In this document: positions 6,974 through 61,297 of the stretch, one piece after another
Layout of the letters: every line of letters begins with the position of its first letter
How positions within the stretch are numbered: the stretch's first letter is position 1
Assembly (NCBI GenBank): GCA_965261935.1
Contig: OZ253485.1
Location: forward strand, 1,573,173-1,637,172
Source: Dehalococcoidia bacterium
Lineage (GTDB): Bacteria; Chloroflexota; Dehalococcoidia; Lucifugimonadales; G963668185
DNA length: 64,000 nucleotides
Reading direction: 5' to 3'
Made by a program: the position numbers and the translations under genes
Notes under the pieces: generated by a model
Told to the model about the DNA's origin: nothing
Database searches by the model: none
The model's input: the letters and a program-made list of their open reading frames with translations, nothing else

Positions 6974-7011
6974 TTGCCTTCTGCGAACACTAGTGCTACT
7001 ATTGTTGTATG
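6974..7011 (+). promoter_or_regulatory. Sigma70-type promoter with LexA-like box and leaderless start (element copy 1)
   Basis: TTGCCT-17bp-TACTAT-6bp-ATGAAC, with CGAAC-ACTA-GTGC in the spacer. Confidence 0.65.
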
Positions 7012-7309
7012 AACATCGTCGACCGAGCACCCATGCAGGCGAGCCGTGTCCTTATGGGTCCAGGGCCATGCCCTGGTGCCCTGGTGCCTTGGTGGCCGCT
7101 CTTGACCGCGTTCGGCCGCTTCTGGAGCTTCTGGCGCCGCACTTCAGCTTGGAATTGCCCGCATCAGGCCGCCTACCGCGGACATCCCCGTGGTTCTCAG
7201 TCTCGAATGCGCAGCGCCGGTTGACATTGAAATCGCGCGCCAACGGCTTCTCCATCCTGGCCTGGGCTCGGGACCCGTTCCCTACCCCGATGCGGCACCC
7301 CTTCACCGA

Positions 7310-7436
7310 CTGTCTCACGAATGTCTCAAAGTGTCTCAATGTTGCTTCATTTCCGTCTCATCAACGTCTCAAACTCGTCTCACTGCCAACGAGGAGCCAG
7401 CTATGAAACGAGACGAAACGAGACGAAATGAGACGT
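7310..7436 (+). repeat. Phased repeat array (copy 1)
   Basis: GTCTCA-like units at 7312, 7323, 7333, 7344, 7355, 7366, 7377; CAGCTATG at 7398; GAGAC at 7410, 7420, 7430. Confidence 0.85.
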
Positions 7437-7503
7437 TTCAATCGCCCTGCGGTGCTCGGCCAAGCTGAGGAGGCCCTACATTGACGTCCCACGGGAAGCG
7501 CAA

Positions 7504-8715
7504 TTGACCGCCCGCCAAGACCCTCAGCCCGGGGACCGGCTTGAGCATGCGGAGCTCCTCCTCGGCCGCATGGGTGAACTCGGTGACACGGTCGCCGAGT
7601 TGGACGGTGAGCCGGTCAACGTGTTCGGCGGAATTCCGGGCGAGAGGGTCGTCGCCCGGATCGTGCGCTTCCGAAGAAGACGAAAGCGCGTCGTGTCGGC
7701 AATCGTGACCGAGGTGATCGAGCCCTCGCCTCACCGCGTCTCGCCTCCGTGCCCGTTCTTCGGGCCCTGCACCGGCTGCCAGTGGCAGCACATCGACTAC
7801 GGTCATCAGTTGCGCCTGAAGCGGGGGTGTGTCTTGGACAGGCTCAGCGAGCACGAAGCTCTCGAAGGCGTGGATGTTCAGGCGGTTATGCTCGCTCAGG
7901 AGAAATTTGAGTACCGCAACCACGCTCGGTTCACAGTGCGCAGGGAGGGCCAAATTGGGTTCGTCAACCGGATCACGCGCCGCTTCGTTGAGATCGACCG
8001 CTGCATGCTCATGGACCCCTGGATCAACGGGACGCTGCGGGAGCTGAACGGTAAATGCGCCGAGACTTCCCAGCTCACCATGAGGTACGGCGTAAACACA
8101 GGCGACTGGCTGCTTCAGCCGCATCTTAAGAGCCGGGACGTGAAAATGTTCACCGGCCAGCCCCACTACGAAGAGGAGATGCTCGGTCACAGGTTCCGGA
8201 TCGGGTCTCCGTCGTTCTTCCAGGTCAACACGCGGCAGGCGGAACGGCTGCTGTCGCTCGTCTTCGAACGACTGCGTCTGAGTGGGCGCGAAACGGTTGT
8301 GGATGCCTATGCCGGCGTCGGCGTCTTCGCCGTTGCCGCCGCTGAAGGCGCCCGCCGCGTCATCGCCATCGAGGAGTCGCGTGCCGCGGTCGAGGACGCC
8401 GCGGCCAACACGGAAGGCATCGAAAATCTTGAATACGTCGAGGGAAAGACCGAGCACGTGCTCGCTTCAATTGGCGAGCCTCCCGACGCGGTTGTTCTGG
8501 ACCCGCCGCGCTCCGGCTGCCACGCGGACGCCTTGGAATCGCTTCTGGGACTGGCCCCGCCCCGCGTCGTCTACGTGTCCTGCGATCCACAGTCCTTAGC
8601 GCGAGACTTGGCGATTCTAGTCGAAGGCGGGTACGGCGTGGAGTCGGTCGAGCCCATCGACATGTTCCCGCACACGCACCACGTGGAGTGCGTAGCAACG
8701 CTGACGCGTGGCTAG
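7504..8715 (+). CDS. rlmD: RlmD/TrmA-family RNA (uracil-5)-methyltransferase
   Basis: TRAM-like N-terminus, CPFFGPCTGC Fe-S motif, SFFQVN, DPPR, YVSCDP and DMFPHT motifs. Confidence 0.9.
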   Translation: MTARQDPQPGDRLEHAELLLGRMGELGDTVAELDGEPVNVFGGIPGERVVARIVRFRRRRKRVVSAIVTEVIEPSPHRVSPPCPFFGPCTGCQWQHIDYGHQLRLKRGCVLDRLSEHEALEGVDVQAVMLAQEKFEYRNHARFTVRREGQIGFVNRITRRFVEIDRCMLMDPWINGTLRELNGKCAETSQLTMRYGVNTGDWLLQPHLKSRDVKMFTGQPHYEEEMLGHRFRIGSPSFFQVNTRQAERLLSLVFERLRLSGRETVVDAYAGVGVFAVAAAEGARRVIAIEESRAAVEDAAANTEGIENLEYVEGKTEHVLASIGEPPDAVVLDPPRSGCHADALESLLGLAPPRVVYVSCDPQSLARDLAILVEGGYGVESVEPIDMFPHTHHVECVATLTRG

Positions 8716-8737: not shown

Positions 8738-10918
8738 CTAGGTCAAGGATCTCACACGGTCAATCGAGACCACGCCCTTAACGCCTTCCAGCTTGGAGAA
8801 CAGGCGGTTCAGCTGGTTGATCCCCTTGACGTACACGGTCAGGATGATCACGGTCATGCCGTGAGCCGGCTCCGAGACGCAGTTGCTGATGTTGACCCGC
8901 TCGTTGGATACGAGCGATGTCACGTCGCCAAGCAACCCGACGCGGTCCCACGCCTCCAGTCGGACTCGCACCGGGTACACCTCGTGCGACTCGCCCCAGC
9001 CCACGGGCACAAGCCGCTCCTTCTCGTCCTCGGCCAGGATGTTCGGACATGTCGGCCTGTGAACGGTTACGCCCCGGTTTCGAGTGATGTAACCGACTAT
9101 CTGGTCGCCGCGTATGGGGTTGCAGCAGCCGGCCATGCGGGTCAGCAGGTCGCCAACCCCCATAACCTCGATGCCGGCGGCAGGCCCCACCGTGGGGAGC
9201 ATTATCGGCTTCTCTGGCTGCGGGGAGACGTCCTCGGCCGTGAGCCTGTTTACCACTTGAGCGACGGTTACCGTTCCGTTGCCTAGGGCGATGTACAACT
9301 CGTCCGTGGTGTCGAAGCCCGTTAGTTTCGCCACGTCAATGTTGTCGATCTCCGTGGTCAGCCGCCGGATCTGCTTGTTGTAGATCTCTCGGCCTTGGGC
9401 TAGGTTCGCGTCCCGCTCCTGCCTCTTGAACCACAGTCTGATCTTGGATCTCGCGGACCCGCTCCGTACGTAACCTAGGTCCGGATTCAGCCAGTCGCGG
9501 CTTGGACCGCGCTCAGTCTTGGCGGTGAGTATCTCCACCGTGTCCCCGTTCTGCAGCCGGTTGGACAAGGACACCAGCTTGCCGTTGACCTTGGAACCGA
9601 TACAACGGTGCCCAACGTCCGTGTGGATGCGGTATGCGAAGTCCAAAGGCGTGGACTCGGCGGGCAGCTCCTTGACTTGTCCTTTCGGAGTGTAGACGAA
9701 CACCTGGTCGTCGAAGATGTCCGTCTTGAACGACTCGACGAACTCCTCGGCAGAAGTCACGTCTCGCTGCCACTCCAGGAGTTGCCGGAGCCACGTCATC
9801 TTCTCCTCGAACTGCACGTCGGAGGCGCCGCCCTCTTTGTACAGCCAGTGCGCCGCTACCCCGTACTCGGAGATGCGGTGCATCTCCACAGTGCGGATCT
9901 GTATCTCGACTGGGTTCTGCTCCTCGGCAAGGACCACCGTATGAAGCGACCGGTACAGGTTGTCCTTCGGGTTCGCGATGTAGTCGTCGAAGCTGGCGGG
10001 AATCGGGTTCCAGCGTGAATGGATCGCCCCAAGCGCCCCGTAGCAGTCCGACACCTTCTGCACCAGCACGCGAAGCGCGAACAGGTCGTATATCTCGTCC
10101 GCCGAGCGGTTCTGTTCAGCGTACTTGCGGATTTTCTTGTGGATGCTGTAGATGTTCTTGGGCCTGCCCGAAACCTCGGCGTCGATCCCGGCTACCTTTA
10201 GTTCAGCCTTCAGCAGCCCTATCACCCTCTCGATGTACTCTTCGCGCTTCTGCCGCTTGGAGGCCAGAAGTTCTGAAACGAAACGGTAGGACTCTGGCTC
10301 GATGTGCTGGAACGCCAAGTCTTCAAGTTGCCACTTGGCTTCCCAGATGCCAAGCCTGTGTGCCAGTGGAGCGTAGATATCCAGGGTCTCCTGGGCGAAG
10401 ATCCTTCTGCGTTCGGGTGGCAGGCTGTCCAGGGTCCGCATGTTGTGGAGCCGGTCCGCCAGCTTGATGAGGACCACGCGGATGTCCTCCGCCATGGTCA
10501 TCAGCATCTTTCGAAGAGTGGCCGCTTGGGCGAGCCCGTCCGCTGCGGTCAATCTGAGGGACGACTCGCGCTCTTCTGAGATCGCCTCCGCTTGCGTCAG
10601 CTTCGTGACACCGTCCACGAGGTGGGCGATCTCGTTACCGAAAGCACCTTCCAGGTCCTCGTAGCTGACCTCCTCGCAGTCCTCTAGTACGTCGTGTAGT
10701 AGAGCTGCGGCCAACGCCGAAGAGTCGAGCTTCAAGTCTGCGAGATAAAGGGCAGTCTGCAGCGGATGCTCGATGAACGGCTCGCCGGACATTCTTAACT
10801 GGCCGTCGTGAGCGAACTCGGCGAACCGGTACGCGTCTTCGATTACGCCCAGCTTGTCTTCCGGGATGTACTCTCTTGCCCTTGCTAGCAGTGCTTTCAT
10901 GAACTCCCTTGCGCTCAA
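8738..10918 (-). CDS. relA: Bifunctional (p)ppGpp synthetase/hydrolase (long RSH)
   Basis: HD domain, KLADRLHNMRT, synthetase (YRSLHT, EIQIRT), TGS, zinc finger and ACT domains. Confidence 0.97.
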   Translation of the reverse strand: MSAREFMKALLARAREYIPEDKLGVIEDAYRFAEFAHDGQLRMSGEPFIEHPLQTALYLADLKLDSSALAAALLHDVLEDCEEVSYEDLEGAFGNEIAHLVDGVTKLTQAEAISEERESSLRLTAADGLAQAATLRKMLMTMAEDIRVVLIKLADRLHNMRTLDSLPPERRRIFAQETLDIYAPLAHRLGIWEAKWQLEDLAFQHIEPESYRFVSELLASKRQKREEYIERVIGLLKAELKVAGIDAEVSGRPKNIYSIHKKIRKYAEQNRSADEIYDLFALRVLVQKVSDCYGALGAIHSRWNPIPASFDDYIANPKDNLYRSLHTVVLAEEQNPVEIQIRTVEMHRISEYGVAAHWLYKEGGASDVQFEEKMTWLRQLLEWQRDVTSAEEFVESFKTDIFDDQVFVYTPKGQVKELPAESTPLDFAYRIHTDVGHRCIGSKVNGKLVSLSNRLQNGDTVEILTAKTERGPSRDWLNPDLGYVRSGSARSKIRLWFKRQERDANLAQGREIYNKQIRRLTTEIDNIDVAKLTGFDTTDELYIALGNGTVTVAQVVNRLTAEDVSPQPEKPIMLPTVGPAAGIEVMGVGDLLTRMAGCCNPIRGDQIVGYITRNRGVTVHRPTCPNILAEDEKERLVPVGWGESHEVYPVRVRLEAWDRVGLLGDVTSLVSNERVNISNCVSEPAHGMTVIILTVYVKGINQLNRLFSKLEGVKGVVSIDRVRSLT

Positions 10919-17989: not shown

Positions 17990-19288
17990 ATGGCAGGCAC
18001 GAAACTGGATAGCGCAGAGGTCGTTGTCATAGGCGGAGGCGTCTCCGGCCTGAGTTCGGCATGGTGGCTCGCGCAGCAGGGAGCGGACGTAGTCGTGCTG
18101 GAAAAGGGCGTAGTCGGCTGGGAGGCATCGGGCCGCAACGGCGGCGGGCTGGGACATCGGGCGGGCGACCCGCCGGTCACTCCGCTGGCCACTCAGGCGC
18201 TCAAGCTGTGGCCTGAGATGCACGAGAGACTCGGCTACCCGACCGAGTACATACCAGGCAGGCTCCGGGTGGCGCTGACCGAGCGCCAGATGCAGATGTG
18301 CGAGATGTCCCATGAGCACTGTCTTAAGGTGGGTGTCGACTCGGAGCTCATGGATCCGAAGGCCATCAAGGAGCTGGTGCCGGTTGTGAACCCAGCAGTT
18401 GTTGGCGGCGTGATGGCGCCTGCCGAAGGCAAGACCAATCCTCAGCGCGTGGTCCAAGCGTACGCCTGGGCGTTCCAGGACCTGGGCGGACGGCTGTACC
18501 AGCACACCACGGCTACGGGATTCCTGATGAGCGGCGGGAAGGTGACGACGGTGGAGACGAATCGCGGCGAGATCGACTGCGACTTCGTGGTCAGCGCGGC
18601 GGGCCCACAGACAGGGCTACTTGCCGAGATGGCGGGCGCGTTCGTTCCAGTGTCGCCGGCCCGAGTGGAGATCATAGTCACGGCGCCGATTCCCCGGCAC
18701 TGGGCAGGCGGATTCGTGGGCAACGGGTTGTACGGCCGGCAGACGGTGCGCGGCAATCTGGCGTATGGCGGCGGCCCGCACGAGTGGATAGACGTGGACA
18801 ACACGACGCCGAGGAAGCCAAACACGCCCCTGATCCGGAACATTGCGCGGCGCTTGGCTGAGCTGCTGTCAGGCGCGGCCGAGGTGCCAGTGATCCGGAG
18901 CTGGTCGGGAGTGGTGGAACAGACGCCGGACCTCTGGCCGATCATCGACTTTCTGCCGGAGCCGTCCAACTACCTGCTTGTCACCGTGTCGGGGCACGGG
19001 TATGGCCTCTCCCCCGCGACAGGCATGGTGGTTAGCGAGTTGATCCTCAAGGGCGAGACGACTGTGAACATCGACGGGCTTGGCATGTCGCGTCTGGCAG
19101 ACATTCCGAGGGACTGGAAGGAGGAGCGGGGCTGGGTGCCCCTGCCAGAGAGCAGCACCCACCGGGAGTACCCGTACTCGCACTACGAAGGCGTCGTCGG
19201 AGGCTTACCTCAGGAAGTGCTGCAGGGGTCCGCCGGAGGCTCGCCCAGAACAGTGCCGGATGAGTCGGGAGAACAGTTCGTCTGCTAG
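17990..19288 (+). CDS. FAD-dependent oxidoreductase (DAO/sarcosine oxidase beta-like)
   Basis: GGGVSG dinucleotide motif, ASGRNGG, TPD..PII and SGHGYG motifs. Confidence 0.9.
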   Translation: MAGTKLDSAEVVVIGGGVSGLSSAWWLAQQGADVVVLEKGVVGWEASGRNGGGLGHRAGDPPVTPLATQALKLWPEMHERLGYPTEYIPGRLRVALTERQMQMCEMSHEHCLKVGVDSELMDPKAIKELVPVVNPAVVGGVMAPAEGKTNPQRVVQAYAWAFQDLGGRLYQHTTATGFLMSGGKVTTVETNRGEIDCDFVVSAAGPQTGLLAEMAGAFVPVSPARVEIIVTAPIPRHWAGGFVGNGLYGRQTVRGNLAYGGGPHEWIDVDNTTPRKPNTPLIRNIARRLAELLSGAAEVPVIRSWSGVVEQTPDLWPIIDFLPEPSNYLLVTVSGHGYGLSPATGMVVSELILKGETTVNIDGLGMSRLADIPRDWKEERGWVPLPESSTHREYPYSHYEGVVGGLPQEVLQGSAGGSPRTVPDESGEQFVC

Positions 19289-19520
19289 GGGCTGGTCCTA
19301 AAACGTCTTTTGATAGGATCTTGGCGTCCGCGTCAGCCTTGCGCTGACGAACCTCTGTCCAAGCTCATGCCCTCCTTCACAGCGCTTATGGCGAGGGAGG
19401 GGTGCGCTTACGAGGGCGTGTACACCATGAACTTGCCGCTTCAGATCCACTGCGCCCTTGGCTTGGGGCGAGACCTGCCGGCTTCACGGTAGTGGGTTGA
19501 GAACCTCACGATCGCCAGAA

Positions 19521-19656
19521 TCTGTCACATTCCGTAACTTTCTGTCACAGCGCATAGCTGAGGAGCACTGGCGCGCGTTACATTGGCCGGCATTTTTGCT
19601 ACCTGAATGGCACAGAAACGACACTGAATGGTGGAGAATGATACATTCTGTGACAT
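19521..19656 (-). repeat. Phased repeat array (copy 2, GTCACA variant)
   Basis: Minus-strand degenerate TGTCAC/TGTATC/TGTGCC/TGTAAC units about 10-11 bp apart; CAGCTATG at 19553-19560; inverted units at 19523, 19533, 19543. Confidence 0.7.
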
Positions 19657-19737
19657 GGCTAACGGGGAGCCTTGAGGCCGTGATGCGCGGGGAACGTCGG
19701 AGTTGCGCTGGCGCCGGGTAGTCAGATTCGCAGCGTT

Positions 19738-19775
19738 CATGCGTCCATAATAGCACACCAGTTCGCCAAGAGCAA
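19738..19775 (-). promoter_or_regulatory. Sigma70-type promoter with LexA-like box and leaderless start (element copy 2)
   Basis: Minus strand TTGCTC-17bp-TATTAT-6bp-ATGAAC, with CGAAC-TGGT-GTGC in the spacer. Confidence 0.65.
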
Positions 19776-21018: not shown

Positions 21019-21077
21019 CGGCGATCACGCCGCGGCGACACAGAGACGATTGCGTAACGCCGCTGTGCGGGTGAGGA

Positions 21078-21115
21078 CCCCATCCCAGCCTTCCCCAGCA
21101 GACTGGGGAAGGGGC
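21078..21115. repeat. REP-like palindrome between convergent genes
   Basis: CCCATCCCAGCCTTCCCCAG-CAGA-CTGGGGAAGGGG. Confidence 0.6.
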
Positions 21116-21165
21116 CAGAAGCCCGCCTTCCTTATGTGGAAGCGAAGGTTGTTTCAATGGTCTTG

Positions 21166-56923: not shown

Positions 56924-56947
56924 GTAGGGGCTGGTTTCAAACCCGCC
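56924..56947 (+). repeat. GTAG-type REP
   Basis: GTAGGGGCTGGTTTCAAACCCGCC. Confidence 0.8.
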
Positions 56948-57491
56948 TTCTCCGCTGGCAATTGACAGGATTGTCTATGTCCTCGGACCATTTCTTGGGA
57001 TTATCAATGATGTATTCGCGAACTCTGTTCAATTCGTGCTCGCTGCGGATGATGTGATCATAGAATCCGCGCTGCCAGACATGTGAGCCGGTGGATGCGC
57101 GTATCTGATTGATTGTACGTGCAGAGAACGTCTTGAAAGCGCGTACGATCTCGCTCATGCTGTGACGTTCGTCGACAACGCGCTCTGAGAGGGCGGGTTG
57201 TAAACCCGCCCCTACGCCCATGGTGTTGTCTTCGATAATGATCACACCGTGTACATGATTCGGCATCAGAACGAACGCATCAAGAGTGATGTTCAGGTAG
57301 TGCTTGGGCAGATTCGCCCAACAGTCCTCCACAATCGCGCCGAAGTGGTTCGCTGCCATTCTGCCATTTACAATGTGCCCAAACAGCAGATGGCGATTCC
57401 AAGTACATGCAGTGATGAAGTAGCCGCCTGCGGTTGAGTAGTCGTAGCCTCGCAGACGTAATTGCCTGCGACGTCGTTCTATGAAATGCAA
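56937..57491 (-). CDS. REP-associated tyrosine transposase (RAYT, Y1 HUH)
   Basis: RLRGYDYS..G.YFIT, MPNHVH, WQRGFYDHIIR and YIIDNP motifs. Confidence 0.93.
   Translation of the reverse strand: MHFIERRRRQLRLRGYDYSTAGGYFITACTWNRHLLFGHIVNGRMAANHFGAIVEDCWANLPKHYLNITLDAFVLMPNHVHGVIIIEDNTMGVGAGLQPALSERVVDERHSMSEIVRAFKTFSARTINQIRASTGSHVWQRGFYDHIIRSEHELNRVREYIIDNPKKWSEDIDNPVNCQRRRRV
57190..57215 (-). repeat. GTAG-type REP inside the RAYT coding sequence
   Basis: Minus strand GTAGGGGCGGGTTTACAACCCGCCCT, encoding VGAGLQPAL. Confidence 0.85.
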
Positions 57492-59086: not shown

Positions 59087-59211
59087 GCGTTGGTGGCTGG
59101 GCTAAAGCGGGCGTTAGCCTATCACCAAGCTCTGCTTAATCCAAGCTAAGCGCGTACCCGCGCCACATTAGCATTGCTGACAGGCTATAGAACGCTCTTC
59201 AAACAATAAAA

Positions 59212-59338
59212 GTGTCTCATTTTGATTCATTTCGTCTCATTCCGTAGCTGGGGAGGCCTTGGTGCTGGGACGTTATCGAGACGACTTTGGAGCACGACTG
59301 AGGCGATTCCGAGACACTTTGGGACAAAGATGAGACAG
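59212..59338 (-). repeat. Phased repeat array (copy 3)
   Basis: (T/C)GAGAC-like units at 59266, 59277, 59288, 59299, 59310, 59320, 59331; CAGCTACG on minus at 59243-59250; inverted units at 59214, 59224, 59234. Confidence 0.85.
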
Positions 59339-59420
59339 TGGCTTGGGCCCCCTCACGCGAGTGTCGGCGTGGAGAAGTAGGCGTAGCGCTGCATCGGCGG
59401 GAGCCGATTGCTATGGAGTT

Positions 59421-59458
59421 CATGCATCAATAATAGCACGCTAGTTCGTGTCAGGCAA
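59421..59458 (-). promoter_or_regulatory. Sigma70-type promoter with LexA-like box and leaderless start (element copy 3)
   Basis: Minus strand TTGCCT-17bp-TATTAT-6bp-ATGAAC, with CGAAC-TAGC-GTGC in the spacer. Confidence 0.65.
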
Positions 59459-59513: not shown

Positions 59514-60156
59514 CTCTACGACCTGTTCCCGGACCGGCTGGTGACGTCGGAACTTAGGGATGTGGCGGAGAGGTGAGAGGTTGACGTTCTAGACGACGCT
59601 TTTGAATTACTAGGCGGCGGTACTCCTCCTACGTCGGAGCCCTCCTAATCGGAATGGAGATATCCCTTGGTAAAAGGCCAAGGTCGCTCCCGCCCTGAGC
59701 GATATTTTCGTCTTAGAAACAGAGATAAAGATCACGCAGGCAGGAGTCGAGAACAGTTCTACAACGATTCAACCCGCTAAGGGTAGGGTTGGTCGCCTGG
59801 CCTGTCTTGGAAGGCCAATGGTCATGAACCAGACTTGCTATGGCATTCGAGGCGCCGGGTGCTACTCACACCTCCTTACGTATTGGAGTGTGCGAACAGC
59901 GGTAGATGAGCTTCAGACGCGAACACACCGCACGATCTTTGACACCATCAACCATCAGACTTTCGAGTTGGTCGAAACGGTACTAGTGCCCGTTGAAGTG
60001 GCACAAACCTTCGAATCGGTGGTAGGCTTGTTGATGACACACATCCTCGAAAACTTGCATGGGTCCCGTGTACTCGTGATTCAGCGAGATGCACTGCTGC
60101 CGAGAATGATGTCGGACCAGCTGACTCCTATTGGAAGTAAAGGCAATGAGCGCTAA
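59514..60156 (+). pseudogene. hsdS: Type I R-M specificity subunit (HsdS), decayed C-terminal half
   Basis: LYDLFPDRLV.SEL, GGGTP, NGDIPW, KITQAG..NSST, MNQTCY and RDALLP.MMS motifs, interrupted by stops and frameshifts. Confidence 0.85.
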
Positions 60157-61297
60157 AAATACAAAAGTTAATTTGCATGGACTAGCATCTAAACGTTTAA
60201 CGTCTATCTCTGATGCCATGATACCTAAGTTGGAGATTCAATCCATTTCGCAGCTCTTGCAACAATTCACTAGGCAGCAAGAATCGTTGCGAGCCTCATT
60301 TGGCCTTCTCGAGGATTTTCGACTTGCCCATCAACTTGACTACGCAATACCTAGAATGAGCGAATTGCTTGCATTAGAGCAGCAGTTCATATTGCCAGAC
60401 ATCACAGACACCTTGAATCTAATGGCTGAGGTCAACAAGCAGAATCAATTTGCATTGGCTGGGCTCTTTCAAGAGAAGTGGATGGATGACCTAAAAGGCC
60501 AAATTAGGAGTCTGCAGCATCCTTGGTTTGATGTTAAGAACCAAACTGAATCCATTAGTAGTTTGGCGGAGTTGCATGGCATTGGTCATGCCCTAAGTAA
60601 TACGGCGGCCTTTGATCCTGCTCTAACAGATGAGTTGAGATTCGATTTGGGCGATTGGCGAGGCAACATCACATGGCCAGCTGAGATTGCTGTTGATCCA
60701 CTTGCACGGATCTCCTTCTATGAGGAACGAGGCCTTGACTCGACCTTGACCGCGTTTCCTTATCCGGCATTTGAGGAGATTTTGTCCACCAGTGGCCTAA
60801 CGACAACGGATGTACCTATCGCGGACGAATACAATAGGATAACGGAAGACGAAGACGGCCAGTCTGACTTTGAGCGCACTAATCGGGCGCACGATTTGAT
60901 TCAGCGCTTTGAGACGCAAATCAGGAAGTATGTCGATGAGGCGATGGATATAAACATTGGACCGCATTGGATCACTCATCGGGTTCCTGAAGACATGAGA
61001 CTACAGTGGCTTCGAAAGCGTGAAAGTGCACTAGCTAGCGGAGAGCAGGAATGGCCACTGATCGTCTACGCGGATTTCTCCGACTACATTAAGATCATTG
61101 CTAGAAGAGATAATTGGAGGGACGTATTCGAACGAATCTTCACCCGCAAGGCGGACATTCAGGAATCATTTCGAAGACTATATCCTATACGTATATGCAC
61201 GATGCACTCACGCCCTATCACTCAGGACGACGAGTTGCTTCTCCACGTAGAGACGAAACGCATACTCAGTGCCATTGGGAACGAATTTCATGTCTGA
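60131..61297 (+). CDS. Swt1-like HEPN domain protein
   Basis: C-terminal FETQIR..., YADFSDY.KII.RRDNW and Rx4H (RICTMH) motifs; lower GC than the backbone. Confidence 0.8.
   Translation: MEVKAMSAKNTKVNLHGLASKRLTSISDAMIPKLEIQSISQLLQQFTRQQESLRASFGLLEDFRLAHQLDYAIPRMSELLALEQQFILPDITDTLNLMAEVNKQNQFALAGLFQEKWMDDLKGQIRSLQHPWFDVKNQTESISSLAELHGIGHALSNTAAFDPALTDELRFDLGDWRGNITWPAEIAVDPLARISFYEERGLDSTLTAFPYPAFEEILSTSGLTTTDVPIADEYNRITEDEDGQSDFERTNRAHDLIQRFETQIRKYVDEAMDINIGPHWITHRVPEDMRLQWLRKRESALASGEQEWPLIVYADFSDYIKIIARRDNWRDVFERIFTRKADIQESFRRLYPIRICTMHSRPITQDDELLLHVETKRILSAIGNEFHV

Follow-up and report, generated by a model that had tools for sequence, protein, structure and literature searches.

The genome of a Dehalococcoidia bacterium (GenBank assembly GCA_965261935.1) is a single contig of 3.23 Mb with 60.6% G+C, and it carries a family of short, repeat-built units which is the subject of this report. 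The family came to notice in a stretch of 64,000 nucleotides (nt) of this contig (OZ253485.1, positions 1,573,173 to 1,637,172), called the window hereafter, in which three of the units, copies 1 to 3, are found. A unit consists, in this order, of an extended -10 promoter, a start codon, a direct array of about seven repeats with an 11-nt period, a core CCAGCTAYGRAA between the arms, and three inverted repeats with a 10-nt period, each of the form rAAATG-NNN-C. The arrays are of three types, A, B and C, to which the core is common. Type A has the repeats GTCTCA/TGAGAC, with AAATGAGAC as its inverted repeat unit, type B has TGTCAC and TGTAAC with GTGAC and GTTAC, and type C has GGCCGC. In the cross-type alignment the hexamers keep a constant TG-NNN-CA around a variable triplet.

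The three copies in the window

Copy 1 lies on the plus strand between the lipoyl synthase gene (minus strand) and a co-oriented RNA methyltransferase gene, and combines a promoter module (P) with a type-C and a type-A module (P-C-A). Its promoter module (6974..7008) has the -35 hexamer TTGCCT, a 17-nt spacer with GCGAAC, TGC followed by TACTAT, and a 6-nt gap, matching the consensus of 70 copies given below; the spacer reads CGAAC-ACTA-GTGC and ATGAAC stands at 7009. A putatively leaderless open reading frame (ORF) of 71 codons plus stop begins there (7009..7224, +). It spans the type-C module (7088..7189, +; nhmmer match at genome positions 1580260-1580361), which is made of three GGCCGC-like repeats with a 10-nt period, CAGCTTGGAAT, and GCCCGC/GGCCGC/GCGGACA, and it stops 35 nt past the module end. 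This module, sitting between the promoter and the GTCTCA array, was missed in the preliminary description of the locus. The type-A direct array (7312..7382, +) holds seven repeats, GTCTCA with one GCTTCA, which start at 7312, 7323, 7333, 7344, 7355, 7366 and 7377 and are thus spaced by 11, 10, 11, 11, 11 and 11 nt. The core CCAGCTATGAAA occupies 7397..7408 (+), its columns being invariant in the cross-type alignment, and CAGCTATG begins at 7398, 21 nt after the start of the last repeat. Three (C/T)GAGAC inverted repeats with a 10-nt period (7405..7440, +; GAGAC at 7410, 7420 and 7430) are then followed by a weak T-run (GTTTC).

Copy 2 is a P-B unit on the minus strand with the same layout, built of TGTCAC/GTKAC repeats. 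Its promoter module (19747..19775) was identified by reading the sequence and by a promoter pattern match. The ORF (19525..19740, minus strand) has 71 codons and ends in ...VTESYGM-stop, the stop being the TGA of the third inverted repeat, 33 nt past CAGCTA. The type-B module (19517..19656, minus strand; nhmmer, genome 1592689-1592828) shows a TGTCAC/TGTATC/.../TGTAAC array, CAGCTATG at 19560-19553, and GTGAC/GTTAC/GTGAC.

Copy 3 is a P-A unit on the minus strand, upstream of a co-oriented acyl-CoA synthetase gene. Its promoter module (59430..59458) reads TTGCCT-17-TATTAT and is also called, with its TG before the -10, by a promoter scan, in which copy 1 falls one match below the threshold. 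The ORF (59217..59423, minus strand) has 68 codons and again stops at the TGA of the third inverted repeat. The type-A module (59208..59338, minus strand; nhmmer, genome 1632380-1632510) has seven direct repeats, CCAGCTACGGAA (CAGCTA from 59250), TGAGAC/TGAATC/TGAGAC, and CTTTTATT; its repeat spacings and its 21-nt core offset are identical to those of copy 1.

A 31-nt pattern running from the promoter to ATGAAC, CGAACNNNNGTGCTAYTATNNNNNNATGAAC, has three matches in the window, and 100 shuffles that preserve dinucleotides have none. Additionally, Tandem Repeats Finder reports period-10 arrays at 7405-7435 (3.1 copies) and 59214-59245, and a period-11 stretch at 7307-7328. The shared architecture on which the preliminary description was built was re-read feature by feature and stands: TTGCYY-17bp-TAYTAT with CGAAC-N4-GTGC in the spacer and ATGAAC 6 base pairs (bp) past the -10 at all three loci, about seven direct repeats, CAGCTAYG at an offset of 21 nt, three inverted repeats 10 nt apart, and the common repeat spacing of copies 1 and 3. 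The three unlinked loci are real but undercount the family, since they are three of about 98 units.

A family of 98 units

Iterated nhmmer profiles run over the whole genome yielded 98 units, which contain 70 promoter modules and, of arrays, 40 of type A, 47 of type B and 32 of type C, or 119 in all. The sequence GAAC-N4-GTGCTA has 60 exact sites genome-wide, nearly all in the same promoter context. P invariably comes first and on the same strand as the arrays, and an array module follows in 67 of the 70 cases. The commonest classes are PB (27 units) and PA (13), followed by PCA (9), PCB (5), PC (4), PBC (3), PBA (3), PAC (2) and PACB (1); three promoters stand alone, and 28 modules are orphans (12 A, 8 B and 8 C). 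Arrays with a period of 10 or 11 nt and at least three exact pentamers number 73, of which 53 lie inside units; 14 of the 20 outside are short matches inside genes.

No Rfam family reaches its gathering score in the 64-kb window, and six 3-kb loci with PB, PCA and PA units gave no match up to an E value of 1. Neither a transfer RNA nor a transfer-messenger RNA was found in the window. A literature search found no paper on leaderless promoters of Dehalococcoidia, and among the papers listed for intergenic repeats of Chloroflexi and sponge symbionts none was relevant, the motif itself not being searched in print. Going by the Rfam, Pfam, protein and limited literature searches, the family looks undescribed. 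A terminase cos/pac-like site or a partition site had also been suggested; no evidence for either was found, the units being about 100 chromosomal intergenic copies beside housekeeping genes.

Promoter and start codon

The consensus of the 70 promoter modules is cTTGCc-N4-GCGAAC-N4-GTGCTA-n-tAT, in which TTGC, GCGAAC and GTGCTA..AT are near-invariant. It has the marks of a sigma-70-type promoter, namely a -35 hexamer, a 17-nt spacer, TG at -15/-14 in 60 of 70 copies, and TAyTAT. Six nt past the -10, the three bases are A in 56 or G in 11, T in 67 and G in 68 of the 70 copies, giving ATG or GTG in 66. The start codon therefore lies where a transcript would begin, a position compatible with the leaderless messenger RNA that the preliminary description had envisaged.

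The same description had placed the units under SOS control. The Gram-positive-type (Cheo-type) LexA box is GAAC-N4-GTTC, and the units resemble it in carrying CGAAC, then GT-C four bases on, inside a promoter. Moreover, the spacer GCGAAC is near-invariant (G 70, A 62, A 70 and C 70 of 70) although dispensable for the promoter itself, it matches one half of the box, and the genome holds one lexA gene. However, the palindrome is not completed: the first half, GAAC, is invariant and the second diverges, its third base being G in 60, A in 9 and T, the base at the critical position, in 1 of 70 copies. The TG of GTGC is the extended -10 TGn. The genome's own lexA promoter (about 935,450-935,600) reads TTGACA-N14-TGC-TAGATT and also has TGC before its -10, which makes TGC at this place ordinary in this genome. 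The box of the lexA gene is a different one, AGAACATCTTTTCT, just downstream of the lexA -10 and one base off GAAC-N4-GTTC, and it is the likely LexA operator candidate; no GAAC-N4-GTTC box was seen in the 260 nt upstream of recA. Furthermore, some 70 strong promoters would make an unusually large SOS regulon. LexA repression of the units through CGAAC-N4-GTGC, which would be compatible with any other reading of them, is consequently regarded as very improbable, and the SOS label is dropped.

The conservation of GCGAAC in the spacer (window 6983-6988, and all 70 promoter modules) is an observation in its own right, as a sigma-70 promoter needs no such motif. GAAC frequently recurs at codon 2 (ATGAAC), 22 nt downstream of the spacer GCGAAC. 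The spacer motif may be an operator or half-site for another factor.

An open frame without codon constraint

Openness of the reading frame was assessed over the stretch that begins at the start codon and stops 45 nt short of the first module's end, in the 64 of 67 promoter-headed units with a module that have ATG or GTG at the anchor. Frame 0 is free of stops in 57 of these 64 units, compared with 6 for frame +1 and 23 for frame +2; by type of the first module, it is open in 14 of 15 (A), 30 of 32 (B) and 13 of 17 (C). The same holds in related genomes, taking 39 of 47 pattern hits in which a module was found, which were not duplicates and in which the region was at least 90 nt long: frame 0 is open in 29 of the 39, against 4 and 15 for the other frames. 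Between the ATG and the array lie 43 to 356 nt, and type-A arrays are entered in all three frames (5, 4 and 6 units), so openness tracks the ATG and not the composition of the array.

The frames end inside the inverted repeats. Leaving aside five units that lack a recognisable core, type-A ORFs stop 11, 21 or 31 nt past CAGCTA as set by the frame, because the type-A inverted repeats carry ATGA at 10-nt spacing and thereby offer TGA and ATG in all three frames. In type B, 21 of 32 units use one common frame; most of these stop 33 nt past CAGCTA, and their ORFs mostly end in ...VT(K/E)CYGM-TGA.

Such frames could be genuine genes for small proteins of about 65-75 amino acids, in which the repeats encode a low-complexity Ser/Val/Leu-rich or Cys-containing tail. 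The conserved start codon and the open frame would agree with this, as would the type-B units that share one frame and mostly one ending, and the core TAY, which is a synonymous Tyr codon in one frame. There is also a weak N-terminal consensus, M-N-T-(T/A)-x-H-R-N-(R/H)-A, written with synonymous codons (Thr as ACC 7, ACG 5 and ACT 5; Asn as AAC 16 and AAT 7; His as CAC 23 and CAT 4). The variation between the ORFs argues otherwise. Column entropies at codon positions 1, 2 and 3 are 1.15, 1.05 and 1.09 in 13 same-frame type-B ORFs (those of 180-260 nt ending in ATGTGA), with no excess at the third position. The G+C fractions by codon position in the variable 5' part of the ORFs (0.64/0.59/0.66) are far from those of 1346 long genes (0.64/0.46/0.75), intergenic DNA having 0.58/0.58/0.58. 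Additionally, type A is read in all three frames, and the orthologous ORFs cannot be aligned as proteins. Pfam gave nothing below an E value of 0.1 for the three window ORFs, and the copy 2 ORF, the one searched, has no relative among 5.8 billion clustered proteins (lengths 39-125 amino acids). Small-protein genes are therefore considered quite improbable.

The peptides are not conserved, as already stated in the preliminary description, and selection appears to act on nucleotides. Its broader statement, that selection concerns DNA or RNA geometry rather than protein, is right for the unconstrained peptide but overlooked that a frame is kept open and ends in the inverted repeats, features which would make translation part of the design. 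Translated yet unselected short ORFs are known in mycobacteria (PMC9094748); in the part of that account available to us their frames are not reported as held open across a paralogous family, unlike those described here.

Repeat arms that change together

The hexamers of the direct and inverted arms switch together between the types GAGAC, GGAAC, GCAAC, GTCCC and GTKAC. Among 50 of 57 arrays, those with at least two class pentamers, each inverted-repeat class has upstream only its own reverse complement. For instance, the GAGAC class (n=26) has 3.96 GTCTC per array and at most 0.12 of any other pentamer. The corresponding figures are 4.0 GTTCC for GGAAC (n=3), 3.8 GTTGC for GCAAC (n=5) and 3 GGGAC for GTCCC (n=1). 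One chimeric array, locus L059 of the congener G002 (119-271), has TGAGAC, TGCAAC and TGAGAC as inverted repeats and a direct mix of GTTGCA, GCTGCA, GTCTCA and GCCTCA, and the make-up of its arms is mirrored even inside this single unit.

In a cross-type alignment of 15 sequences, RNAalifold predicts three nested helices between direct repeats (R) and inverted repeats (IR), namely R1:IR3, R2:IR2 and R6:IR1, with R3-R5 unpaired. Both sides have changed with the pair kept in 13 of the 24 predicted pairs. Over the 21 long-range pairs, 88.6% of the cells form a pair; shuffles give 74.5%, none of the 500 coming up to the real alignment, and sliding the partners by 1-3 columns leaves 24-41% paired; double-sided changes occur in 46 cells where 18.3 are expected. 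The base just outside R1/IR3 co-varies as well (GC 8, CG 4), and a hand count of the promoter strand gives about 21 G-U against 11 A-C cells. In the minimum-free-energy fold of copy 3, R1 pairs with IR3 immediately before the U-run. Alignments within single types give a weak consensus or none (A -7.1 forward and -20.1 reverse, B about 0, C 0); the repeats hardly vary within a type, and so the cross-type alignment alone is informative. A hairpin in the spacers R1-R2 and R2-R3 (CTTTC/AAAG) was rejected, as it looked compensated in two copies and is not kept in a 29-copy alignment. Among the options raised earlier, an RNA whose GUCUCA and UGAGAC arms pair is the best fit as the arms co-vary.

The arrays might also act without translation, either as DNA, in the form of a phased nucleoprotein platform, or in trans, as a small RNA or sponge offering single-stranded hexamers. 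The strict 11/10-nt phasing and the T-rich spacers of type B would suit such a role, and so would the constant TG-NNN-CA frame around a variable triplet, the high copy number behind a conserved strong promoter, and the repeats R3-R5 left unpaired in the consensus fold. On the other hand, at least five hexamer types in one genus would require as many binding specificities, the AUG-UGA of the type-B inverted repeat cannot mimic a gene start, no candidate protein is linked to the units, whose neighbours are unrelated housekeeping genes, and the conserved start codon and frame-0 openness stay unexplained. A role of this kind is thus judged unlikely.

Distribution and orthologous loci

The family is present in all four genomes of the genus, comprising this genome (G000) and three congeners (G001-G003), and in one genome of another family of the same order (G024). 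A 20-nt promoter pattern occurs 27 times in G000, 21, 8 and 7 times in the three congeners and twice in G024; it is absent from the other 26 relatives searched, one of which, 86% complete, is of the same family as G000. When the pattern is lengthened to 29 nt so as to take in the start codon, G000 has 33 matches and the 400 other genomes sampled across the class have none (401 genomes including G000, 300 of them of high quality). The G024 copies follow the full plan, with promoter, open frame, array, a CCAGMTAC core, GAGAC inverted repeats and a T-run. Broken down by genome, the units with an open frame 0 are 10 of 12 in G002, 5 of 5 in G003, 2 of 2 in G024 and 12 of 20 in G001.

Copies 1 and 3 are conserved in position, lying upstream of the same co-oriented genes in all four species, though the hexamer type differs. 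Orthologues of copy 3 are GTCTCA/TGAGAC in G000 and G003, GTTCCA/TGGAAC in G001 and GTTGCA/TGCAAC in G002, and those of copy 1 are of the GGAAC, GCAAC and GGGACA/TGTCCC types. Copy 2 is present in G002 and was undetected in G001.

In G001, the loci L034, L036, L039, L042, L044 and L045 are near-identical copies of a type-B unit, which remain similar for at least 40 nt ahead of the promoter and, on the downstream side, for about 200 nt that take in another repeat. From this extent, the six copies are read as the product of a composite block that was recently amplified as a segment. A second short hairpin repeat, found in the window at 21043-21134 (…CCTTCCCCAGCAGACTGGGGAAGG…), has dozens of copies with 90-100% identity in G001, G002 and G003 and also adjoins the amplified type-B units of G001.

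Mobility is the principal alternative explanation. The array module could be a miniature inverted-repeat transposable element (MITE), that is, a deletion derivative of a DDE-type transposon with about seven subterminal transposase sites at the left end and three inverted ones at the right, a hexamer type for each transposase, and the promoter as cargo or landing site. TG...CA termini are typical of DDE elements, and the ends of IS21 (L1-L3/R1-R2), Tn7 and Mu combine direct sites at one end with inverted ones at the other and TG...CA termini. The modules are similar in having direct repeats on one side, inverted repeats on the other and TG...CA. Terminal inverted repeats are indeed present, as the modules read cTG...CAg (CTGTCTCA...TGAGACAG; TGTCAC...GTGACA) and the flanking base co-varies. 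Furthermore, a period of 10-11 bp would align the repeats along one side of the double helix, the two strands have similar fold energies, modules stack in varied order behind one promoter (PCA 9, PCB 5, PBA 3, PBC 3, PAC 2, PACB 1), and 28 modules are orphans. The presence of copy 2 varies between species, near-identical recent copies exist in G001, and the genome has seven rve-type transposase matches.

Unlike IS21, Tn7 and Mu, however, the modules have no target duplication and no partner or enclosed transposase, and their arms lie about 35 bp apart around a core common to all types. An alignment of 29 type-A modules shows no target-site duplication: the flanking sequence varies on the left and is the conserved GATTTTTC on the right. 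None of the 20 arrays outside units flanks a transposase (G000 only), so that no autonomous partner is seen, and the two multi-copy insertion sequence (IS) types that were checked have different ends. Copies 1 and 3 are fixed in place across four species. The similarity of the recent G001 copies extends beyond both unit ends, which means that the duplicated segment is not the module. The conserved ATG/GTG and the openness of frame 0 (57 of 64, over a variable spacer) are also left unexplained. A mobile origin of this kind is accordingly held to be somewhat unlikely.

Genomic setting and read data

According to gene calls from a home-made, rough caller, 2 of the 98 units overlap a called gene and the next gene downstream is co-oriented in 61. 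The neighbours have no common theme; in the window they are lipoyl synthase, RNA methyltransferase, FAD oxidoreductase, methyltransferase, acyl-CoA synthetase and RelA/SpoT genes, and PEBP, IS21 and dapB-asd adjoin the units of G024. The RelA/SpoT homologue (8738-10918, minus strand) is full-length, with HD, RelA_SpoT, TGS and ACT domains, and lies two genes downstream of copy 1.

Of 18 sequencing runs retrieved by a search, one (X12) is recorded as RNA and one (X18) is guessed to be RNA, while some runs labelled sponge metagenome share a small part of the query words. The data of the four runs used consist of assembled contigs, which carry no starts, ends or strand, and the RNA runs possibly contain DNA. 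A contig of an RNA run (X12 record 16) spans 18100-19588 and ends inside copy 2, and contigs of X18, a run guessed to be RNA, span 7337-7487 and 7480-7613; none of these shows a transcript boundary. DNA contigs of run X1 break at copy 1.

A possible ribosome-operated RNA switch

The features above are tentatively brought together in the favoured reading, held with low confidence, in which the units are leaderless translated RNAs and ribosome traffic opens a clamp of three helices. The strong extended -10 promoter of sigma-70 type would start the RNA at the A or G of ATG/GTG, producing a leaderless transcript. Ribosomes would translate an ORF of about 60-80 codons, whose amino acids are free to vary and from which stop codons are kept out. 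This ORF would cross the roughly seven direct repeats (11-nt period) and end inside the three inverted repeats (10-nt period). At the level of RNA and not of DNA, the inverted repeats would pair with the direct repeats as R1:IR3, R2:IR2 and R6:IR1, closing the array before the T/U-run. A translating ribosome would have to open the 5' arms while sitting on them and would complete its run on the 3' arms, which would make translation and the folded clamp mutually exclusive. With a ribosome following closely, no clamp would form and RNA polymerase could read into the neighbour, which for 61 of the 98 units is a co-oriented gene and for the others would be an antisense target. If no ribosome translated the ORF, the clamp would form and a short transcript would be ended or stabilised. 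An open frame that is not under coding constraint and a set of complementary arms are hard to explain separately, and in combination they point to a competition between ribosome and fold for one RNA. The sequence statistics establish the architecture, the copy number, the conserved start codon, the frame-specific openness, the absence of codon constraint, the covariation of the arms and, for two of the three window copies, the conserved position in four species. The confidence is kept low because transcription from the promoter, translation and the termination or read-through output are deduced from sequence, and because 37 of the 98 units have no gene to lead.

Several observations weigh against this reading. 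With regard to the fold, the mean folding z-scores are -2.5 for type A, -1.5 for B and -0.9 for C and are convincing only for A; folding is strand-symmetric (z -2.7 for the type-A reverse complement), and the transcripts of copies 2 and 3 have z = +0.2 and -1.6. Only about five hexamer types underlie the covariation and many of the arrays are paralogues of one another, which leaves few independent events. Inverted protein-binding sites would co-vary identically, and array G002_x4 has GTGAC/GTCAC partners placed so as to cross other helices. With regard to translation, the second and third modules of P-C-A or P-B-A units and the 28 orphans lie outside the leaderless ORF, and the recently amplified subfamily of G001 has frame 0 closed by a stop in five of its six near-identical copies. 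With regard to the output, the next gene is convergent in 37 of 98 units, again on the rough gene calls. Copy 2 is flanked on both sides by gene tails, those of a methyltransferase and an FAD oxidoreductase gene, and is missing from G003, in which 19 bp separate the flanking genes. The T-run is modest: at least 4 T follow the last inverted repeat in 56% of the 48 units ahead of a co-oriented gene and in 37% of the 30 facing a convergent one, and no compact hairpin terminator is found at copies 1 or 3.

A bolder version, which is doubtful, sees here a new class of device, in which a leaderless 'spacer' ORF translated by 70S ribosomes uses the ribosome as helicase and gate on a re-programmable TG-NNN-CA clamp. 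About 100 such gates would tie neighbouring or antisense transcription to the capacity for leaderless translation, forming a genome-wide 'ribulon' without a sensing codon. The units would spread as cassettes of a promoter and its gate that lack the ends of a classical transposon. The chance that the family has no precedent is a real one.

Relation to known systems

Leaderless short ORFs of mycobacteria are described as ribosome-dependent attenuators which work through duplexes of the messenger RNA (10.1101/834739). As far as the available part of that account goes, the units, read as proposed here, would resemble these polycysteine attenuators in the AUG/GUG-leading messenger RNA, in the importance of ribosome position over peptide, in the competition between duplex and ribosome, and in the occurrence at many loci. 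They differ in having about 100 copies, against the six loci reported there, and no run of sensing codons, an ORF of 60-80 codons, a duplex of 7+3 phased repeats whose hexamer varies by copy, and no co-oriented downstream gene in 37 of 98 units. By this analogy, the mycobacterial attenuators appear to be the nearest precedent. Several marks of an attenuator are seen in the family, namely the open frame 0 (57 of 64 units), an ORF that runs over the direct repeats to a stop in the inverted ones, and arms that co-vary. The sensing codons of an attenuator are not seen, the peptides being unrelated and having no obvious codon runs by inspection, which was not a formal enrichment test. Amino-acid-sensing attenuation was rejected, as the G024 leader upstream of dapB has no enrichment in Lys, Thr or Met.

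In trp and his attenuation, a leader ORF overlaps the 5' arm of a structure ending in a U-run, and the position of the ribosome picks the structure. The units would likewise have an ORF over the 5' arm of a predicted structure, with a modest U-run after it, and the ribosome position would decide the structure. Unlike these leaders, they have no compact G+C-rich hairpin, no regulatory codons and no Shine-Dalgarno sequence, and the ribosome would stop on the 3' arm. The BOX, Correia/NEMIS, ERIC and REP/BIME repeats are high-copy, intergenic, modular and foldable, with possible promoter activity, and the units share with them copy number, intergenic placement, modularity, folding potential and a possible promoter. 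To our knowledge, none of these families has been described with a conserved start codon at the transcript start, a selected frame, hexamer arrays with 11/10-nt periods, and co-varying types. Hammerhead-like, CRISPR-like, type III antitoxin, integron attC and Rho-loading elements were also considered, with Rfam as the tool applied, and set aside as their layouts do not fit or the hexamers are too varied.

Other features of the window

A short G+C-rich palindromic repeat, AGTCCCCTCGCCCTTGATGGGAGAGGGCTAGGGTGAGGGTGA, lies at 2071-2113. Its contig depth is hundreds of times that of the surroundings in all four runs, and it is a frequent site of contig breaks. Nearly the same sequence bounds a three-copy IS element of the genome on the left side. 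The repeat has the look of a REP-like element or of a hotspot for insertions. A weak partial match to a Y1 (IS200/RAYT-type) transposase (26.3 bits, profile positions 60-119) occurs at about 57006-57173 on the minus strand, in the ORF 56937-57491, just downstream of the acyl-CoA synthetase gene that follows copy 3. It is the sole such match in the genome, and the ORF could be a REP-associated transposase for short palindromic repeats. Upstream of copy 3, the segment 59460-62000 has no counterpart in the three congeners, has 50.8% G+C and encodes, at 60131-61297, a protein of 388 amino acids that contains a Swt1-like HEPN domain. The segment probably represents a variable island of the defence or toxin type.

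Implications

Gene callers and Rfam miss the units, which matters to annotators of metagenome-assembled Dehalococcoidia genomes. Even if the units were mobile elements, they would be unusual ones, without target duplication or partner transposase and with a selected open frame. If they are instead leaderless translated RNAs that ribosomes open, one small genome would hold about 100 cassettes of a promoter plus a translated leader, in which the act of translation is selected and not the peptide. Regulation by leaderless short ORFs, so far shown in mycobacteria, would then extend to Chloroflexota with a very different, repeat-built RNA. Moreover, the family would provide a natural set of interchangeable helix 'codes' for studying the concerted evolution of such structures.

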